Shown: positions 27,001 to 33,000 of the stretch, piece by piece
Layout: each line of letters begins with the position of its first letter
How positions within the stretch are numbered: the first letter of the stretch is position 1
DNA from: an uncultured Gemmatimonadales bacterium
GTDB taxonomy: Bacteria > Gemmatimonadota > Gemmatimonadetes > Longimicrobiales > RSA9
NCBI GenBank assembly: GCA_963783305.1
Contig: CAWAMW010000002.1
Span: forward strand, 64,001-128,000
Direction of reading: 5' to 3'
Length of the DNA: 64,000 nt
Position numbers: made by a program

Positions 27001-30000
27001 CCGGTACCAGCTACACCGCGCGCCTCCTCTCCGACCGGAACCTCCGCCTGAAGAAGCTGGGGGAGGAGGCCGCCGAGCTTGCGGTGGCGTGCGCGGACGA
27101 GGACATCGAGCGCGTCCGGGATGAAGCGGCCGACGTCGTCTATCACACGCTGGTTGCAGCGCTCGCCGCGGGGGTAAGCGTCGATCAGGTGCTGGAGGCG
27201 CTCGACGAACGGCGAAGCTGAGACCGCCCGGCCGGCGAAGTCCACCGACCCGATCGGGTCCTACTCCACGCGGGGCGGGCGCGGGTGCACGATGATGCGA
27301 TAGAGGATCAACAGGACCACGGAGCCGAGCACCGCGATCGCCAGTGACTTGAGGTCGAAGCCGGTGACCTCGCCCCACTGGAACACGGTTGTCCCGAGAA
27401 AGCCGCCCAGCAGCGCGCCCACCACACCGATCGCGATGGTCACGAGGCACCCCCCGGGGTCCTTGCCGGGCATGATGAGCTTCGCGATTCCGCCGGCGAT
27501 CAGGCCCAGCACGACCCATGTCAGGATGTTCATTGGTGACTTCCCTCCCCGCAGTTCTCCGCTCCAACACGTACAGCGTCGCGCCCACAGCGGCAACCCG
27601 CGGGTCAGCGGCACCGGAGGTGCTGGCAGGGGTAGCACGCCGCTCGGCACCTGCACTACACTACGCTACGCGAGCCGACCGACCGTGCAAGCCGTGAGCC
27701 CGCGCATGGCCCGAACGAAGCGCTGAATGCCCGCAACCGAGATCAAGCCGGCCCACGAGGAGGAAGCCCTCGGGAAGGCCTACGACGCCCAGCTGATGCG
27801 ACGGCTCCTGGACTACCTGAAGCCGTACCGTTGGAAGGTGGTCCTCGGCGTCGCCATCCTGCTGGTGGTGGCGGGCCTCGAGCTGCTCGGTCCCTACCTG
27901 ACCAAGGTCGCTCTCGACAGCGCCATCCCTGAAGGCGACCTCGCGCAGCTCGGGCTCCTGGCCGGCGCGTTCTTCGCCGCCCTCCTCCTCACCTTCTTCC
28001 TGGAGTACGCCCAGCAGATCCTCACGACATGGCTCGGACAGCGGATCATGTTCGACCTGCGCCGTCAGGTGTTCGGTCACCTGCAGCACCAGAGCCTGCG
28101 CTATTTCGACCGCAACCCCGTCGGCCGCCTGATGACCCGCGTCACCAATGACGTGGAGGTCCTGAACCAGCTTTTCAGCTCCGGTATCGTCACGGTGTTC
28201 GGCGACGTGTTCACGCTCATCTTCATCGTCGGCGTGATGCTCTGGATGGACTGGCGCCTCGCACTCGTGGCCTTCGCCGTCATGCCGTTCGTGATCCTCG
28301 TCGCATTCGTGTTCCGCGCCAAGGTCCGCCAGGCCTACCGCGACATCCGCGTCCGCCTGGCCCGCATCAACGCCTACCTCCAGGAGCGCATTACCGGCGT
28401 GGCCGTGGTCCAGCTCTTCGGCCGGGAGGACAGGACCACGGCGAAGTTCAGCGAGATCAACCGCGACCACCTCGAGGCGCACCTCCGCTCCATCACCTAC
28501 TACGCCCTCTTCTTTCCCGTCATCGAGGTGCTCACCACCATCGCCCTCGCCGCCATCCTGGTGTACGGCGGCGGGCGGCTCATGGATGGCACCGTGTCCG
28601 TGGGCGTGGTCACCGCATTCCTCATGTATGCCCGGCGTTTCTTCCGACCCATCCAGGACCTGTCGGAGAAGTACAATATGCTCCAGGGCGCCATGGCCAG
28701 CAGCGAGCGAATCTTCAAGCTGCTGGACAGCGAGCCCAGCGTCCGGGACCCCGACGTCCCCGACCACCTCCCGGAGCCCGGCCGGGGCGAGATCGAGTTC
28801 CGCAACGTCTGGTTCGCCTACACCCGCGACCAGGAGGACGACGACTGGGACTGGGTCCTCAAGGACGTCAGCTTCGTCGCCCGCCCCGGTGAGCGCCTCG
28901 CCGTCGTGGGACACACCGGCGCCGGAAAGACGACGCTCATCAACCTCCTCATGCGCTTCTACGAGCCCCAGAAAGGGGAGATCCTCTTCGACGGCGTGCC
29001 CATCCAGCGCGTCACCCAGCGGGAGCTCCGCGAGCGCATCGGCCTCGTCCTTCAGGATGTCTTCCTGTTCAGCCGGAGCGTCGAGTACAACATCCGCCTC
29101 GGTCGCGATGATATTGACGACGCCCGCATCCGGCAGGCCGCCGCCCGGGTCGGCGCCGACCGCCACATCGAACGGCTCCCACGCGGCTACGAGGAGCCCC
29201 TCGGTGAGCGCGGCACCAACCTCTCCGTCGGCCAGCGCCAGCTCCTGTCCTTCGCCCGCGCCCTCGCCTTCGATCCGCTCGTCCTCGTCCTCGACGAGGC
29301 CACCAGCTCCGTCGATTCCGAGCTCGAGCACCAGATCCAGGAGGCCCTCGAGCGACTCCTCGAAGGCCGCACCTCCCTCGTCATCGCACACCGCCTCTCC
29401 ACCGTACAGAGCGCCGACCGCATCCTCGTCTTCCACCACGGCGAGCTCCGCGAAGCCGGCACCCACGCCGAGCTCCTGGACACGGGCGGGCTGTATGCGA
29501 GGTTGTATGAGTTGCAGTTTGTGGCGGTTTAGCGGCGTGGCTCGCTGCGCTCGCAGGGTGGCTCGCTGCGCTCGCAGGGTGGCTCGCTGACGCTCGCAGG
29601 GTGGCTCGCTGACGCTCGCAGGGTGGCTCGCTGACGCTCGCAGTATGGCTCGCTGACGCTCGCAGGGGGTCAGGGGGGACGGGATCTGGCCCAGGTGATC
29701 AGGCGGTTCAGGTCGAGTTTGATATCCTTGAGCCGCCGGAGCCCCTCATCGATCAGGGGAGGCGGAAGGGCCCGGGCCGCGGCGAGGCCGCCCAGGCAGC
29801 GCTCACACTCACCGCAGGAGCGGTAGGCGTACCGGAAGAACCGCTTCTTGTCTCCCGTGCTGCTCTCGTCCAGCCCCTCCCCAACGTTCGCAAGCGCAGA
29901 GACCGCCGCCCGCCTCAACTGATCATTCACCTCCGACCAGTGCCCCCCCAGAGCCCGCTCCACCCGATCACAGAACCCCAGCAGCTCCCCCGCCAGCCGC

Positions 30001-33000
30001 GCCACCCGGTATCTCTCCCCCATCGCCCCCTCCTTTCCATGCCTCCACAACCTCCCTCTCCCCCCAGGGCACCTCCATAGCCCAACGCGCCATCTCTCCC
30101 CTGCGAGGCGCAGCCGAGCCACCCTGCGAGGCGTAGCCGAGCCATACTGCGAGGCCCAGCCGAGCCATACTGCGAGGCGCAGCCGAGCCATACTGCGAGG
30201 CCCAGCCGAGCCATACTGCGAGGCGCAGCCGAGCCATACTGCGAGCCAAAGGCGAGCCACCCTGGCTCACTTCTTGCCCCTCCGCACCACCACGAGAACG
30301 CCGGAAATCGACCCGGCCAAACACCAGGCCCGCCATGCCGGAAACGATCCTGATTGTGGACGATGACCCCGACTCGCTCGACATCGTCCGAACGTTCCTC
30401 GAGTCGCGCGGATATGACGTCCATATCGCTCGCGACGGGAAGTCGGGCCTCGCGAAGCTCGAAGAAGTGGAGCCGTCGCTCGTCCTTCTCGACGTGATGA
30501 TGCCCGGCATGGATGGCTGGCAGGTCGCCCGCGTGATCAAGAACCACCCGGAGCACGGCGACACCCGGGTGGTCATGCTCACCGCCCGCAGCGGGTTCAA
30601 CGACAAGCAGGAAGGGCTACGGTCCGGGGCCGATGATTATATCGTCAAGCCGATCCGGTTGGACGAACTCGCGGCCCGGGTCGAGAAGAACCTGGAGGCG
30701 CGGGCGAAGCTGACGTGAAGATCCTCAGCCGCATCGAAGACCCCGAGCTGCGCGATCAGCTCGACCGGGTCGCGCAGCGAATCAAGGCAGAGGTATCGGA
30801 CAGCTCTGAGGCCTCTTCCCCCGGCACGGGCGCGGCGGCCTCGACCGTCCTCTTCGTCGAGATGCCCGCCGACCGATGTCTCAACGGCGTCGAGGAGGAG
30901 GCGAAGCGCGTGGGCGCGGCCCTCCTGATCGCGTGCCGCGACATGGAGGATTGCAGTGCCGCGGCCCTCTCACGCGCCGACGAATGGGTCCTCCTGCCCT
31001 CCTCCGAGGCGGAAATCGAGGCGCGACTTGGAACCGCGCGGCAGCGGGCGCTGGCCCGGGCGGTGTCGAATGCCGACCATGATGGCGATGTCGCCGAGTT
31101 CCTCCGCTACGAGGAGCTGCTCCACGATCGTCTCACCGGCTTCCCCACGCTCCCCGTCATGCTCGAAAAGGCGCGCGAGATCCTGGAGCGGCGCGGTGAG
31201 CTGACCATCCTCTACATCCAGTTCGTCTGGTACGAGAAGATCGAGGAGATCTACGGCTGGCAGAAGCTGGACGGCGTCCTCGAGTCCACCGCGGAGGGTG
31301 TCGAGCAGTTCTATCGTCAGCACCATCCCGAGGCCGACAGCCAGATGATGGTCAGCCACATCGGCGACGACGACTTCATCCTCTTCACCGAGCATCCGAA
31401 GGCGAGTGACTCCACCCAGCCGGAGCAGGCGCTGAAGGACCTCACGCAGCGCCTGGAAGGCTTCCTGCGCCAGAAGCTCGAGAACGACCACTCCGAGGAC
31501 ATCGCATCTCTCTGCGGCATCTACGTAGGAGCGGCGACCATCTTCCGGAACCCCAAGATCCGGATGGAGCGGCTGATCTACCGCGGTATCCGCGAAGCGT
31601 CGCAGGCTGCGCGGGGCGCCAAGGAATGGGAGCGGACGCGGAAGATCAGCGACCTGAAGACGCTGCTCCGGGAAGGGGCGGTCTTCATGGAGTACCACCC
31701 CATCATCGTCACCGCGACCGAGGAGATCTACGGCTACGAGGCGCTCGCCCGGGGCCGCCGCCCGGGGCTCCGATCCCCCGAGGTCCTTCTGGACGTGGCC
31801 AGCGAGGCCAACCTCCTCTGGGAGCTCTCCCGCCTCTTTCGCAAGCGCGCCGTGGAGGGAATCAATGGGCTCCTGGGCGAGGACCAGTACCTGTTCATGA
31901 ACGTGGATCCGCACGACTTCAACGATCCGGATTTCCGCGACCTGACGCCGGAAGCGCTCGGAGTGGAGAACCCCGACCGCATCGTGCTGGAGATCACCGA
32001 GCGCACCGCCATCAGCGACTACCCGCAGTTCAAGGAATACCTCGCGGCATTCCGCGAGCGCGGGTTCCGTTTTGCCGTCGATGACGCCGGCAGCGGGTAT
32101 GCCGGTCTCGGCTCGATCGCCAATCTCGATCCCGACTACATCAAGCTCGACATCTCGCTTATTTCCAACATCGACACCAACTTCATGAAGCAGAACCTGG
32201 TGCAGACGATGGTGAAATTCGCCCGGGACAACGACGTTATGGTCGTGGCGGAGGGCGTCGAGCGACGCGAGGAGTTCGAGATCGTGAAGGAGATCGGCGT
32301 TCACCTGACCCAGGGCTTCCTCTTCCACAAACCCCGCCAGTCCGGCATCGAGCAGTGAGCCGGAGCGGGCAGACCCAGAGCCCGTGACCGCCTCTACCGC
32401 ACAGCCACAGACCGCCTCCTACACGGCCCGTCGCGACGACGCCGTGGCTCATCGCGACAGCCTCGCCCGTCGCGCCCGATCCATCAGCAACCTGCGACTG
32501 CTCGCGTTCCTGGCGGGCCTCGGCGGCCTCGTCTGGGCCGAAGCCCGGCCGGAGCACGGGGCCGCCGCCCTCGTCGTCGCAGCCGTCGCAGCCGTCTCCT
32601 TCTTCGTTCTCATCGGCATCCACTCCCGCCTGAAGCAGCGCGAGCGCTGGGCCGCCGAGATGGCCGCGGTCAACCAGGAGGGGATCGACAGGATCGCCCG
32701 CGAGTGGGATTCGCTGCCCAGCGTTGCACCCGCGGGACCGCCCCGCCACGGCTACGCCCACGACCTGGACGTCTTCGGGCACGGCTCTCTCGCCCGGTAT
32801 TTCGGAACGGCGGGAACCGCCCTCGGGAAGGCGCGGCTCCACGAATGGCTGCTGGCCCCGGCCGGTGTGGAGACCGCTCGTCGCCGGCAGGAATCCGTGC
32901 GCGAGCTCGTGCCGCTCCTCGATTTTCGACAGGAGCTCCAGGTATCCGGGCGTCTGACCGAGGACCCCGACCCCGCGGCGCTGGACGCGTTCCTGGACTG

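Follow-up and report, generated by a model that had tools for sequence, protein, structure and literature searches.

A four-helix-bundle gene framed by inverted tandem-repeat arrays between protein-coding genes of a Gemmatimonadales bacterium: a cassette possibly analogous to rRNA intervening sequences

Segment 29533–30262 of the window (the whole analyzed stretch of 64,000 nt, to which all coordinates without a contig name refer) consists of a PF05635/TIGR02436 gene enclosed by repeat arrays that are reverse complements of each other. The cassette fills the gap between the stop codon of an ABC-transporter gene and the conserved sigma-54-type promoter of the next operon, and it is one example of a widespread kind of insert. 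The earlier note had described such a gene framed by inverted arrays that form a long interrupted stem, and TRF, the profile match, the inverted pairs, and the folds agree on this arrangement. As the best reading, which we hold tentatively and place just short of an even chance, the segment would be a long-resident foldback cassette working like an ORF-bearing rRNA intervening sequence (IVS).

27727..29532, plus strand: ABC-transporter gene, 601 aa, its stop codon abutting the left arm (PF00664, PF00005)
29533..29669, no strand: left arm (TRF, repeat families D2-D4, unit list)
29670..30023, minus strand: four-helix-bundle gene, 117 aa plus stop (PF05635, TIGR02436, AlphaFold2, Foldseek, composition)
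30024..30100, minus strand: leader, 77 nt from the right arm to the ATG (alignment of the leaders of the genome under study, G000, and its congeners G003 and G006)
30101..30262, no strand: right arm (TRF, repeat family D1, inverted pairs I1-I12, unit list)
30263..30277, plus strand: GG-N10-GC promoter-like motif TGGCTCACTTCTTGC, outside the cassette (conserved motif, rpoN present)

Organization of the cassette and its flanks

The left arm, on the 3' side of the cassette gene, starts 1 base past the ABC-transporter stop codon (29530–29532) and contains six units of 21–22 nt, each composed of the core CTCGCAGGGTGGCTCG and a CTGCG or CTGACG spacer (TRF: 29537–29667, period 22, 6.0 copies, 95% matches, score 234). 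The right (5') arm ends at the sigma-54-type promoter and contains seven units of 23 nt, the complement of CTCGCAG(TAT/GGG)GGCTCG with a GCTGCGC or GCTGGGC spacer (TRF: 30101–30259, period 23, 6.9 copies, 91%, score 255). The units are REP-like, combining a conserved GCA-NNN-GG linker with a small variable hairpin. Both the GC content of the element (0.697) and the GC3 of its gene (0.83) are host-like.

The promoter-like motif TGGCTCACTTCTTGC, which has the form of the sigma-54 consensus, bounds the insert on the right and belongs to the response-regulator gene (30335–30718). Of 20 orthologous upstream regions, 19 contain the form NGGC-N7-TTGC, as opposed to 0.046 occurrences per kb genome-wide, and the genome contains rpoN. 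The cassette gene is antisense to both neighbors, which precludes its expression from a host read-through transcript; its upstream region gave no sigma-70 consensus match, and no promoter was identified. Both observations count against an IVS-like mechanism. A Shine-Dalgarno-like sequence (GGAAAGGAGG) lies directly upstream of the ATG, and the leader block GGTGCCC (30067–30073), invariant across the three aligned congeners (G000, G003, and G006), may be a candidate promoter or 5'-UTR element.

Predicted folding and comparison with intervening sequences

For 29520–30290, the RNA folds have energies of −401 kcal/mol (plus strand, z −7.9) and −450.4 kcal/mol (minus strand, z −6.9), and none of 20 shuffles reached the energy of either strand. 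The predicted structure places the gene in the loop of an imperfect stem of roughly 130–160 bp that would be foldable on both strands. Twelve inverted pairs connect the two arrays, including pairs of 16–17 nt at 100%, the longest being 30 nt at 80%. Pairing is confined to the 16-nt cores, with the spacers forming internal loops, which counts against an IVS-like mechanism. A G-U-compatible strand bias is absent from the inter-arm mismatches (55 vs 48, p 0.55), among which transversions predominate (212); thus, they provide no support for RNA-level selection on one strand, another point against an IVS-like mechanism.

According to excerpts of PMC4990558, S23p-bearing IVSs have complementary borders and are cut by RNase III, and their stem region contains heptameric direct repeats that vary in number. 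The 23S rRNA IVSs of Coxiella burnetii (helix 45) and Leptospira share with the cassette the placement of the same family in the loop, short direct repeats in the stem region, the lack of a transposase, and a sporadic occurrence (PMC4990558, excerpts). In contrast to the IVSs, which reside in an rRNA helix (PMC4990558, excerpts), the cassette lies between protein-coding genes, its arms are long arrays of 22–23-nt units, and its units recur in dozens of gene-less arrays; moreover, RNase III cutting is known for IVSs and hypothetical for the cassette. The label "IVS-like" used earlier is apt as an analogy of layout and no more, since the two 23S genes of the genome showed no insert and the ORF is antisense to its flanking genes, unlike the rRNA IVS ORF (PMC4990558, excerpts).

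If the cassette works like an IVS, a transcript through both arms would form long double-stranded RNA that could be cut by RNase III, and the flanking host messages would thereby be insulated and left with structured ends. The complementarity of the arms may be kept either by selection for pairing or by mutual conversion of the inverted arms, while slippage may lengthen and shorten the arrays. The foldbacks and arrays that lack a gene could be decayed or partial copies, and the protein would most likely bind structured nucleic acid from the element that encodes it.

Persistence and evolution within the genus

Three congeners (G003, G005, and G006) have the gene at this very site, pointing the same way, and arm units are found at both contig ends in a fourth (G002), so the window copy is not a fresh insertion; judging from these shared positions, the cassette persists vertically in the genus. 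The identity of the gene between species of the genus is only 38–54%. The site is indeed empty in other genera, as had been proposed: at all 13 loci that retain both flanks, tblastn with the protein gave no match in the spacer, and 11 of these 13 spacers measure 121–571 nt.

The ORF is intact in three full copies and one partial copy. The dN of the cassette gene amounts to 0.37–0.76 vs 0.05–0.13 for the ABC gene, with a dN/dS of 0.31–0.96 (Nei-Gojobori, custom script); by these estimates, the protein evolves 4–7 times faster than its neighbor, yet stays intact and under constraint. The best match of each of the eight arms from four species is its own partner arm (arm-arm scores of 74, 58, 79, and 105 within species vs 21–69 across species), and the linker variant is species-specific and common to both arms. 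On this evidence, the two arms evolve in concert.

Cassettes and gene-less arrays in the same genome

The genome contains six PF05635 matches, five of which have TRF arrays on both flanks, the same numbers as counted before. Four of the six loci have an inverted-flank score above 32, the highest value among 296 control genes; the C7 cassette, scoring 23, is weak, as its units pair at just about 5 of 7 positions, and the gene on C11 has no arrays. A recount of the 16-nt core with up to three substitutions again yielded 147 units in 20 arrays, and the previous fold energies of −538, −568, and −367 were reproduced for C16:413195–413786 (−538.0, 234 of 258 pairs across the arms), C15:137246–138032 (−568.2), and C2:93537–94245 (−366.6).

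TRF arrays with a score of at least 70 include four large families of 35, 22, 19, and 16 members, totaling 92 mostly gene-less arrays (10.1 kb) at 82 places. Solo arrays account for 73 of these places; the other nine have at least two arrays each, and five of them carry a gene. The cassette unit is common to many gene-less arrays of the genome, and the five cassettes belong to different families or sub-families. These families bear out the proposal that every cassette has a unit of its own and that these units recur in palindromes without a gene and in solo arrays. Two members of heptamer family 2 lie in the window.

25702..25805, plus strand: gene-less solo array (GTAATCT) x14.9 (TRF)
45912..45992, plus strand: gene-less solo array (TCTGTAA) x11.6 (TRF)

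The former is located between two co-directional genes, its heptamer family being that of the C7 cassette arms, and the latter has the same unit in rotated form.

The arrays could instead be a gene-independent host feature, that is, satellite-like hairpins at gene 3' ends serving as terminators or 3'-end protectors, with the gene as a passenger that prefers the loops of pre-existing hairpins or is swapped between foldbacks by homologous recombination. We consider this unlikely, although the prevalence of solo arrays and the small hairpins seen by eye at the empty site of other genera favor it. Likewise, with crude gene calls and solo arrays read off the table, many arrays begin within about 20 nt of the upstream stop codon, and array polarity follows the local GC skew in families 0 (11/12) and 3 (13/14) and the direction of flanking genes in family 2 (8 vs 3). 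UNCG loops are stable RNA tetraloops, and on the strand sense to the upstream gene many of the unit hairpins are capped by UUCG, UACG, or UGCG. The rRNA IVSs, by comparison, take the place of helix tetraloops (PMC4990558, excerpts). On the other hand, five of the six genes fall into the nine double-array places, which together cover about 5 kb of 4.35 Mb, so the association is far from random and passive co-occurrence is insufficient; the lineage-specific linkers common to both arms also count against this reading.

REP/REPIN-RAYT systems consist of a single gene flanked by inverted copies of a dispersed intergenic repeat found mostly at gene 3' ends; the REP/REPIN units combine a conserved linear motif with a small hairpin and form lineage-specific families. 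A gene with an inverted dispersed repeat, motif-and-hairpin units, and lineage-specific families are found here as well. In the bolder rival reading, each four-helix-bundle gene would be the sole master copy for a repeat family of its own and would encode a product that acts in trans on cognate units by spreading, amplifying, or maintaining them, and the gene-less arrays would be non-autonomous members. We regard this as doubtful, if slightly likelier than the host-feature reading. It agrees with the assignment of the five cassettes to different families or sub-families, with the gene in five of the nine multi-array places, and with the related hexamer units of related proteins (64–74% identical); Ralph and McClelland, as cited in excerpts of PMC4990558, suggested the ORF as a mobility component. 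However, the protein is a four-helix bundle without a nuclease or recombinase signature or known catalytic motif, whereas RAYT is an HUH/Y1 transposase, and the units form head-to-tail arrays instead of REPIN doublets. The window cassette keeps a single site across the genus, and no excision or empty-site variants occur among the contigs examined (contigs only). Of two weak Y1_Tnp matches in the genome, the one checked is not repeat-flanked and the other has no called gene.

Cassettes and arrays in related genomes

Taking 20 loci of relatives together with the six own loci, 19 of 26 exceed the control maximum in inverted-flank score. The remaining seven do not, and the weaker homologues in a Planctomycetota MAG have direct rather than inverted arrays at four of five loci; both facts count against an IVS-like mechanism. 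A crude ORF caller assigned 8 of the relatives' 20 loci as sense and 5 as antisense; 5 more have flanks that converge or diverge, and 2 are unknown, so that the antisense placement seen in 5/5 cassettes here is not a rule. The sense-oriented cassette of G040 has 31 nt, including a Shine-Dalgarno sequence, between arm and ATG, and therefore must be read from the transcript of the upstream gene through both arms.

This single-contig genome lends weight to the master-copy reading: the arms of its one PF05635 gene are ACGGGGA arrays, and 193+260 windows of four such units occur at no fewer than 38 places (0 for the control), whereas five other genomes compared, four of the same genus, have no ACGGGGA arrays. 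In a 400-kb sample, 4/4 ACGGGGA places are short foldbacks directly past stop codons. That a family private to G040 coincides with the arms of its only gene speaks against a gene-independent host feature. Conversely, short-unit arrays are not limited to PF05635 genomes, a finding that favors the host feature and sets the arrays apart from REP/REPIN-RAYT. The complete genome G025 has no PF05635 match, yet within 400 kb a single 8-mer forms three arrays, and four arrays occur in G027, which likewise lacks a match; AGTGCGTG arrays are plentiful both in G040, although the arms of its only gene differ, and in G038, which has no PF05635 match at 98% completeness.

Dispersed short tandem repeats are also exemplified by the STRR heptamers of cyanobacteria. 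Other such repeats are GGGAATC in Xanthomonas and GGGGA(C/T)T in Nostoc (PMC4692102, excerpts), as well as TAACTGA in Beggiatoaceae (PMC4679880, excerpts). In Xanthomonas, 70–75 cases are convergent pairs with potential stem-loops, and the single or paired type is preserved between species (PMC4692102, excerpts). Intergenic arrays of 7-nt-class units are common to these bacteria and the genome studied here (as far as the excerpts go), whereas the arrays here also have units of up to 22–47 nt with an internal hairpin. The terms "helix bundle" and "S23" are absent from the excerpts of both sources, as are "intervening" from PMC4692102 and "intervening sequence" from PMC4679880, and therefore these excerpts make no link to the gene. 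We found no published description of such a cassette layout outside rRNA.

The encoded protein

The cassette ORF matches PF05635 with 44.8 bits (cut-off 33.8, E 1.6e-11) and TIGR02436 with 46.4 bits (cut-off 24), and its product has a pI of 9.3. The AlphaFold2 model (pLDDT 96.6) gave Foldseek matches to 2gsc (TM 0.83–0.86), 2rld, and Avd (4dwl, TM 0.78–0.84). The protein, a basic relative of Avd, probably forms a pentamer.

An Avd accessory gene of a diversity-generating retroelement, a degenerate CRISPR locus, or an assembly artefact is highly improbable, each being refuted for practical purposes. The four-helix-bundle fold is common to Avd (4dwl, 8ub7) and the cassette protein, but sequence identity is about 7%, the 96%-complete genome has no reverse transcriptase (RVT_1) match, and no template or variable repeats were found. 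Some cas loci are reported to contain 23S_rRNA_IVP genes (PMC3936711, PMC10910872, excerpts); the units here, however, are head-to-tail without unique spacers, and the arrays match no Rfam family. As for an artefact, part of the gene and the edges of the arrays recur in contigs of run X1 with 0 differences, a relative of roughly 92% identity from another study likewise breaks at both arrays, and the same layout recurs in independent assemblies of relatives.

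Anatomy and fold of the cassette

Behind the stop codon of an ABC-transporter gene (plus strand, 27727-29532), a spacer of 802 nt leads to a response-regulator gene (plus strand, 30335-30718). It holds a gene of the PF05635 family between two arms of tandem repeats, as follows.

29537-29667, left array, 22-nt unit in 6.0 copies, 95% matches (TRF)
29670-30023, minus strand, four-helix-bundle ORF of 117 aa between the arrays, its ATG preceded by the Shine-Dalgarno-like GGAAAGGAGG
30101-30259, right array, 23-nt unit in 6.9 copies, 91% matches (TRF)

The two arrays are mutually reverse-complementary, with 12 inverted pairs (cores of 16-17 nt at 100%, up to 30 nt at 80%). 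RNA folding of 29520-30290 gives a long interrupted stem on either strand (z of -7.9 and -6.9), and none of 20 shuffled sequences was as good. The units of the arms, about 20-25 nt long, are each made of a linker, GCA[A/G]-NNN-G(G), and, after it, a short GC-rich hairpin that often carries a TTCG, TACG or TGCG loop. Both the GC3 of the gene (0.83) and the GC content of the element (0.697) are host-like. The arrays matched no family in an Rfam scan, and a promoter and terminator scan of 29300-30500, limited to sigma-70 consensus sites, found nothing. A search for RNA runs covering 28900-30900 listed none. The earlier note had described an S23p gene, that is, a relative of the ORF found within intervening sequences (IVSs) of rRNA genes, framed by inverted arrays that can form a stem; the TRF arrays, inverted pairs, profile scores and folds bear this out for the window, and the genome-wide counts and fold energies, when recomputed, came out identical.

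The cassette protein

The window ORF scores above the curated cut-offs of both PF05635 (44.8 versus 33.8 bits) and TIGR02436 (46.4 versus 24 bits). Its AlphaFold2 model (pLDDT 96.6) is an up-down helical bundle, which Foldseek matches to XCC0516 of Xanthomonas campestris (2gsc, TM 0.83-0.86) and BT_0352 (2rld, TM 0.72-0.86), Avd being a more distant structural match (TM 0.78); a profile built from an alignment of 21 sequences (A1) also matches 2gsc (E 1.5e-27). The reported family motif, GxxRxxxSxxxNxxE (PMC3936711), appears in the window protein as Q35..R38...S42...N46..E49, with four of the five positions kept and the first G replaced by Q, and S42, N46 and E49 are invariant or nearly so in A1. 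Structures 2gsc and 2rld contain five chains each, which hints at a homopentameric ring for the cassette protein as well. A CX2CX2C run (C70, C73 and C76, residues 70-76) is present together with C18, and the three congener orthologues have no cysteine there.

Assembly support

The window sits within a 955-kb contig. Contigs from an independent short-read run agree, with 0 differences, at the edges of the arrays and over part of the gene, and the assembly of a relative about 92% identical, from another study, likewise breaks at both arrays. Among the contigs of four DNA runs, a comparison blind to rare variants, none spans the cassette, no joint skips it, and contigs end at the arrays. Arrays of the cassette type have a practical side, in that they break short-read assemblies. 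Many PF05635 matches in the short-read assemblies of relatives lie 100-600 nt from a contig end (e.g., G007:C366:103-414, G010:C132:253-564, and G003:C29:158-469), as expected if flanking arrays break assemblies.

Site and age of the insertion

A promoter-like motif of the response regulator, NGGC-N7-TTGC, which we take to be the sigma-54 consensus, was found in 19 of 20 orthologous upstream regions, versus 0.046 per kb genome-wide; rpoN is present in the genome under study. Because this motif is conserved ahead of the response regulator, the cassette (29533-30262, 730 nt) is seen to fill exactly the gap between stop codon and promoter. Loci of other genera in which both flanking genes are present number 13, and in none of the 13 did tblastn find a relative of the window protein between the two (10/10 without one when three loci from the unpublished genomes G021, G024, and G026 are set aside). 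The spacers of these loci measure 121-571 nt in eleven cases, 1263 nt in one, and ~2260 nt in one, and such empty sites are too diverged to define the ends of the cassette.

Within the genus, an antisense PF05635 gene lies directly behind the orthologous ABC gene in three congeners (G003, G005, and G006), and arm units stand at the ends of both contigs in a fourth (G002); the comparison includes neither G001, which has no orthologue of this ABC gene, nor G004, which was left out of the search. Since the gene occupies the same site in congeners, the window copy is no recent insertion: it has persisted vertically and was already in place before at least four to five species diverged.

Two further features of the spacer were seen by eye in other genera. 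A hydrophobic ORF of ~60 aa (MRL..L..VL..WA..S..G...) lies between the sigma-54-type motif and the response regulator at seven loci (L024, L025, L028, L030, L033, L034, and L036); it is missing in the genome under study (30263-30334), where the response regulator starts 57 nt after the motif. Locus L034 (in G017) carries another palindromic insert, at about 2120-2400 (spacer ~165-440), with inverted ends of ~21 nt (20/21 complementary); it separates the promoter motif from the small ORF and is unrelated to the tandem arrays.

Evolution of the gene and its arms

Among the congeners compared, the C-terminus of the ABC protein is 84-93% identical (dN 0.05-0.13), and the cassette protein 38-54% identical (dN 0.37-0.76, dN/dS 0.31-0.96; Nei-Gojobori estimates with dS near saturation). 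The cassette gene is constrained, its ORF remaining uninterrupted in the three complete copies and the single partial one.

The linker variant differs by species, yet it is common to both arms within a species. All eight arms are most similar to their own partner arm (scores of 74, 58, 79, and 105, versus 21-69 for orthologous arms across species), and the two arms thus undergo concerted evolution. In the genome under study a single unit type has multiplied in both arms, and in G005 in one arm; in G003 and G006 the units within one arm are unlike each other. Either selection that keeps the arms pairing or gene conversion from one inverted repeat to the other could account for the concert. Strand-specific tolerance of G-U pairs between the arms gave no signal (55 versus 48).

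Arrays and genes in the genome under study

Clustering of tandem arrays (TRF score of 70 or more, period up to 100) yielded four large families of 35, 22, 19, and 16 arrays, totaling 92 arrays and 10.1 kb at 82 places. The five cassettes of the genome fall into different families or sub-families. Two solo heptamer arrays of the family of the cassette on contig C7 were assigned by this clustering within the window.

25702-25805, solo heptamer array, C7-cassette family
45912-45992, solo heptamer array, C7-cassette family

Nine places hold two or more arrays; five of them carry a PF05635 gene, and these account for five of the six such genes of the genome. The sixth (C11:29833-30276) has no flanking arrays and is sense-oriented, and its end runs into the beginning of the following gene, as though it had become a fixed part of an operon. 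The polarity of the solo arrays, counted on crude gene calls and with GC skew and gene direction confounded, tracks the local GC skew in family 0 (11/12) and family 3 (13/14) and the direction of flanking genes in family 2 (8 versus 3).

Solo arrays often start within ~20 nt of the upstream stop codon. Such positions would suit the second rival reading, of arrays as host satellites of 3'-end hairpins with the gene carried along as a passenger in hairpin loops; with five of the six genes at only nine multi-array places and linker variants common to both arms, we consider this unlikely.

Relatives with and without the gene

The window protein alone, used as a query against the genome contigs, found no relative, and a query made of a four-sequence clade gave 13 loci. 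The 300-nt flanks of 26 PF05635 loci, 20 of them in relatives and 6 in the genome under study, were scored for inverted similarity, and 19 exceeded the maximum of 32 among 296 control genes of that genome. The remaining seven were the relatives' loci L001, L009, L010, L014, and L016, the cassette on C7, and the C11 gene, which has no arrays; the ORF limits had swallowed the arrays in three or more of the seven. The antisense placement proposed earlier holds for 5/5 cassettes of the genome under study and fails as a general rule, since the 20 loci of relatives include 8 in sense and 5 in antisense orientation, 5 between convergent or divergent flanks, and 2 of unknown orientation.

A counterpart comes from G040, which is assembled as a single contig and belongs to a different family of the order. 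Its one PF05635 gene stands between (ACGGGGA)x15 and the complement x11.6. Four-unit ACGGGGA windows number 193+260 in this genome, at no fewer than 38 places among those listed (control, 0), and none was found in five other genomes, four of them in the genus of G040. Within a 400-kb sample, the four ACGGGGA places are without exception short foldbacks that directly follow stop codons. In G040 the cassette is sense-oriented, and its arm lies 31 nt from the ATG, Shine-Dalgarno sequence included; with only this distance available, the gene must therefore be read from the transcript of the upstream gene through both arms.

Arrays also occur apart from the gene. Arrays of AGTGCGTG fill 5/5 genomes of the genus of G040, including G040 itself, whose gene has other arms, and G038, in which no PF05635 gene was found; the built-in control of this pattern search is void, the reversed unit being a rotation of the unit. 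The complete genome G025, with no PF05635 match, has three arrays of the 8-mer GCCAGCCC (x6-7) in 400 kb, within loci L100-L119.

G025:C1:512366-512414, 8-mer array
G025:C1:580863-580917, 8-mer array
G025:C1:804545-804601, 8-mer array

Dispersed short-unit arrays therefore also occur where the gene is absent. A second genome with no PF05635 match (G027) has four arrays in a 400-kb sample, and samples of the same size from genomes with the gene contain 7 (G040), 10 (G017), and 6 and 3 (two samples of the genome under study). A strict dependence of arrays on the gene was rejected on these counts, between which the difference is modest (3 and 4 arrays without it versus 3-10 with it).

Farther afield, a Chitinophagaceae locus has inverted 14-mers, and a Nitrospirae locus has none. 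In 4/5 loci of a Planctomycetota MAG that hold weaker homologues, the surrounding arrays run in direct rather than inverted orientation. Several PF05635 homologues of this MAG (L050-L053) are flanked by one hexamer family (CGGGGT / ACCCGA) in direct orientation.

Comparison with known systems

S23p-bearing IVSs are described as having borders that complement each other and, in the stem region, heptameric repeats whose number varies, and as being excised by RNase III (PMC4990558). The window cassette resembles the ORF-bearing rRNA IVS in that its complementary borders form a stem whose loop holds an S23p-family ORF. It differs in position, lying between ABC-transporter and response-regulator genes instead of in a 16S or 23S helix, and in orientation, with a minus-strand gene between plus-strand genes, whereas the ORF of an rRNA IVS is sense to the host transcript. 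The two 23S genes of the genome under study (2989 nt, against a model of 2925 positions) contain no large insert. The locus is filed here as an IVS-type element outside rRNA.

In REPIN/RAYT systems, a single gene, encoding an HUH/Y1 transposase, is flanked by inverted copies of a repeat dispersed in the genome. The same layout, a single gene between inverted copies of a dispersed repeat, recurs in the genome under study and in G040, and a REPIN/RAYT-like system, with the protein acting in trans on cognate units, is the main rival explanation; the flanked gene belongs to PF05635 and not to the HUH/Y1 transposases, and we regard this rival as somewhat unlikely. A true RAYT beside the arrays was not found: two weak Y1_Tnp matches (30.1 and 26.6 bits) lie elsewhere in the genome, one in a called ORF, the flanks of which were examined and are single-copy, and the other in no called gene. 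A transposon or MITE would be recognized by target-site duplications and by insertion polymorphism among close strains; what is seen is a site occupied across the genus, strongly diverged empty sites in other genera, and no contig joint that skips the element.

Sources that mention the family treat it as the ORF of rRNA IVSs (PMC4990558; PMC11270868), as Avd-like (PMC10053308), or as "associated" with cas loci, with 18 genes reported, including one that sits between cmr3 and cmr2 (PMC3936711); a figure legend also lists it in a cas-locus context (PMC10910872). A diversity-generating retroelement was rejected as a reading, because the genome (95.96% complete) has no RVT_1 match. Unlike a CRISPR array, with its unique spacers and nearby cas genes, the cassette has units arranged head to tail; the Rfam scan detected no CRISPR repeat family, and the neighboring genes encode the ABC transporter, the response regulator, and a GGDEF-EAL protein. 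The arrays probably explain the reported association of the family with CRISPR arrays and cas loci. Among dispersed short repeats, paired convergent arrays are reported in Xanthomonas, where the published unit is GGGAATC (PMC4692102). By term search, "helix bundle", "S23" and "intervening" are absent from that paper, and "helix bundle", "S23" and "intervening sequence" from another (PMC4679880). The literature under the names of the family and on heptamer repeats, supplements aside, yielded no description of such cassettes outside rRNA.

Proposed mechanism and meaning

We tentatively favor, at slightly less than even confidence, a resident IVS-like foldback cassette as the reading of this anatomy and placement. 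A transcript running through both arms would form a long double-stranded RNA open to cutting by RNase III, by analogy with rRNA IVSs; the cut would separate the cassette from the host messages and leave structured ends on the latter. The protein, basic and probably pentameric, may bind structured nucleic acid of its own element.

To our knowledge, the S23p ORF of rRNA intervening sequences has been without a known function since 1993, and we know of no origin for the dispersed heptamer-type repeats of bacteria. The locus and its relatives connect the two, with a gene of the S23p family, likewise packaged in a hairpin, between ordinary genes and with units that populate the rest of the genome. 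A broader and unlikely proposal is that PF05635 proteins are the partner so far missing for the families of short tandem repeats scattered through many bacterial genomes (e.g., the heptamers found in Xanthomonas and in cyanobacteria). In this view, every such gene, lying between inverted arrays of its unit, would act as master copy in a RAYT-like system of non-HUH type; the encoded protein would recognize unit hairpins and drive or maintain their spread, and rRNA IVSs would represent the same element after landing in a helix of rRNA.

What the genome under study adds is threefold: its long resolved arrays reveal the unit as a linker plus a mini-hairpin, like a REP; its arms evolve together even as the unit differs from species to species within the genus; and its cassette demonstrates that stable inheritance is possible, with a fast-evolving but intact gene. 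The binding target of the protein, the cutting of the stem by RNase III, and the dependence of arrays on the gene are now directly testable.

Elsewhere in the window, 19 plus-strand tRNA genes are tightly clustered at 48817-51284, over ~2.5 kb, and a further tRNA gene lies at 57945-58028 (all Rfam RF00005).
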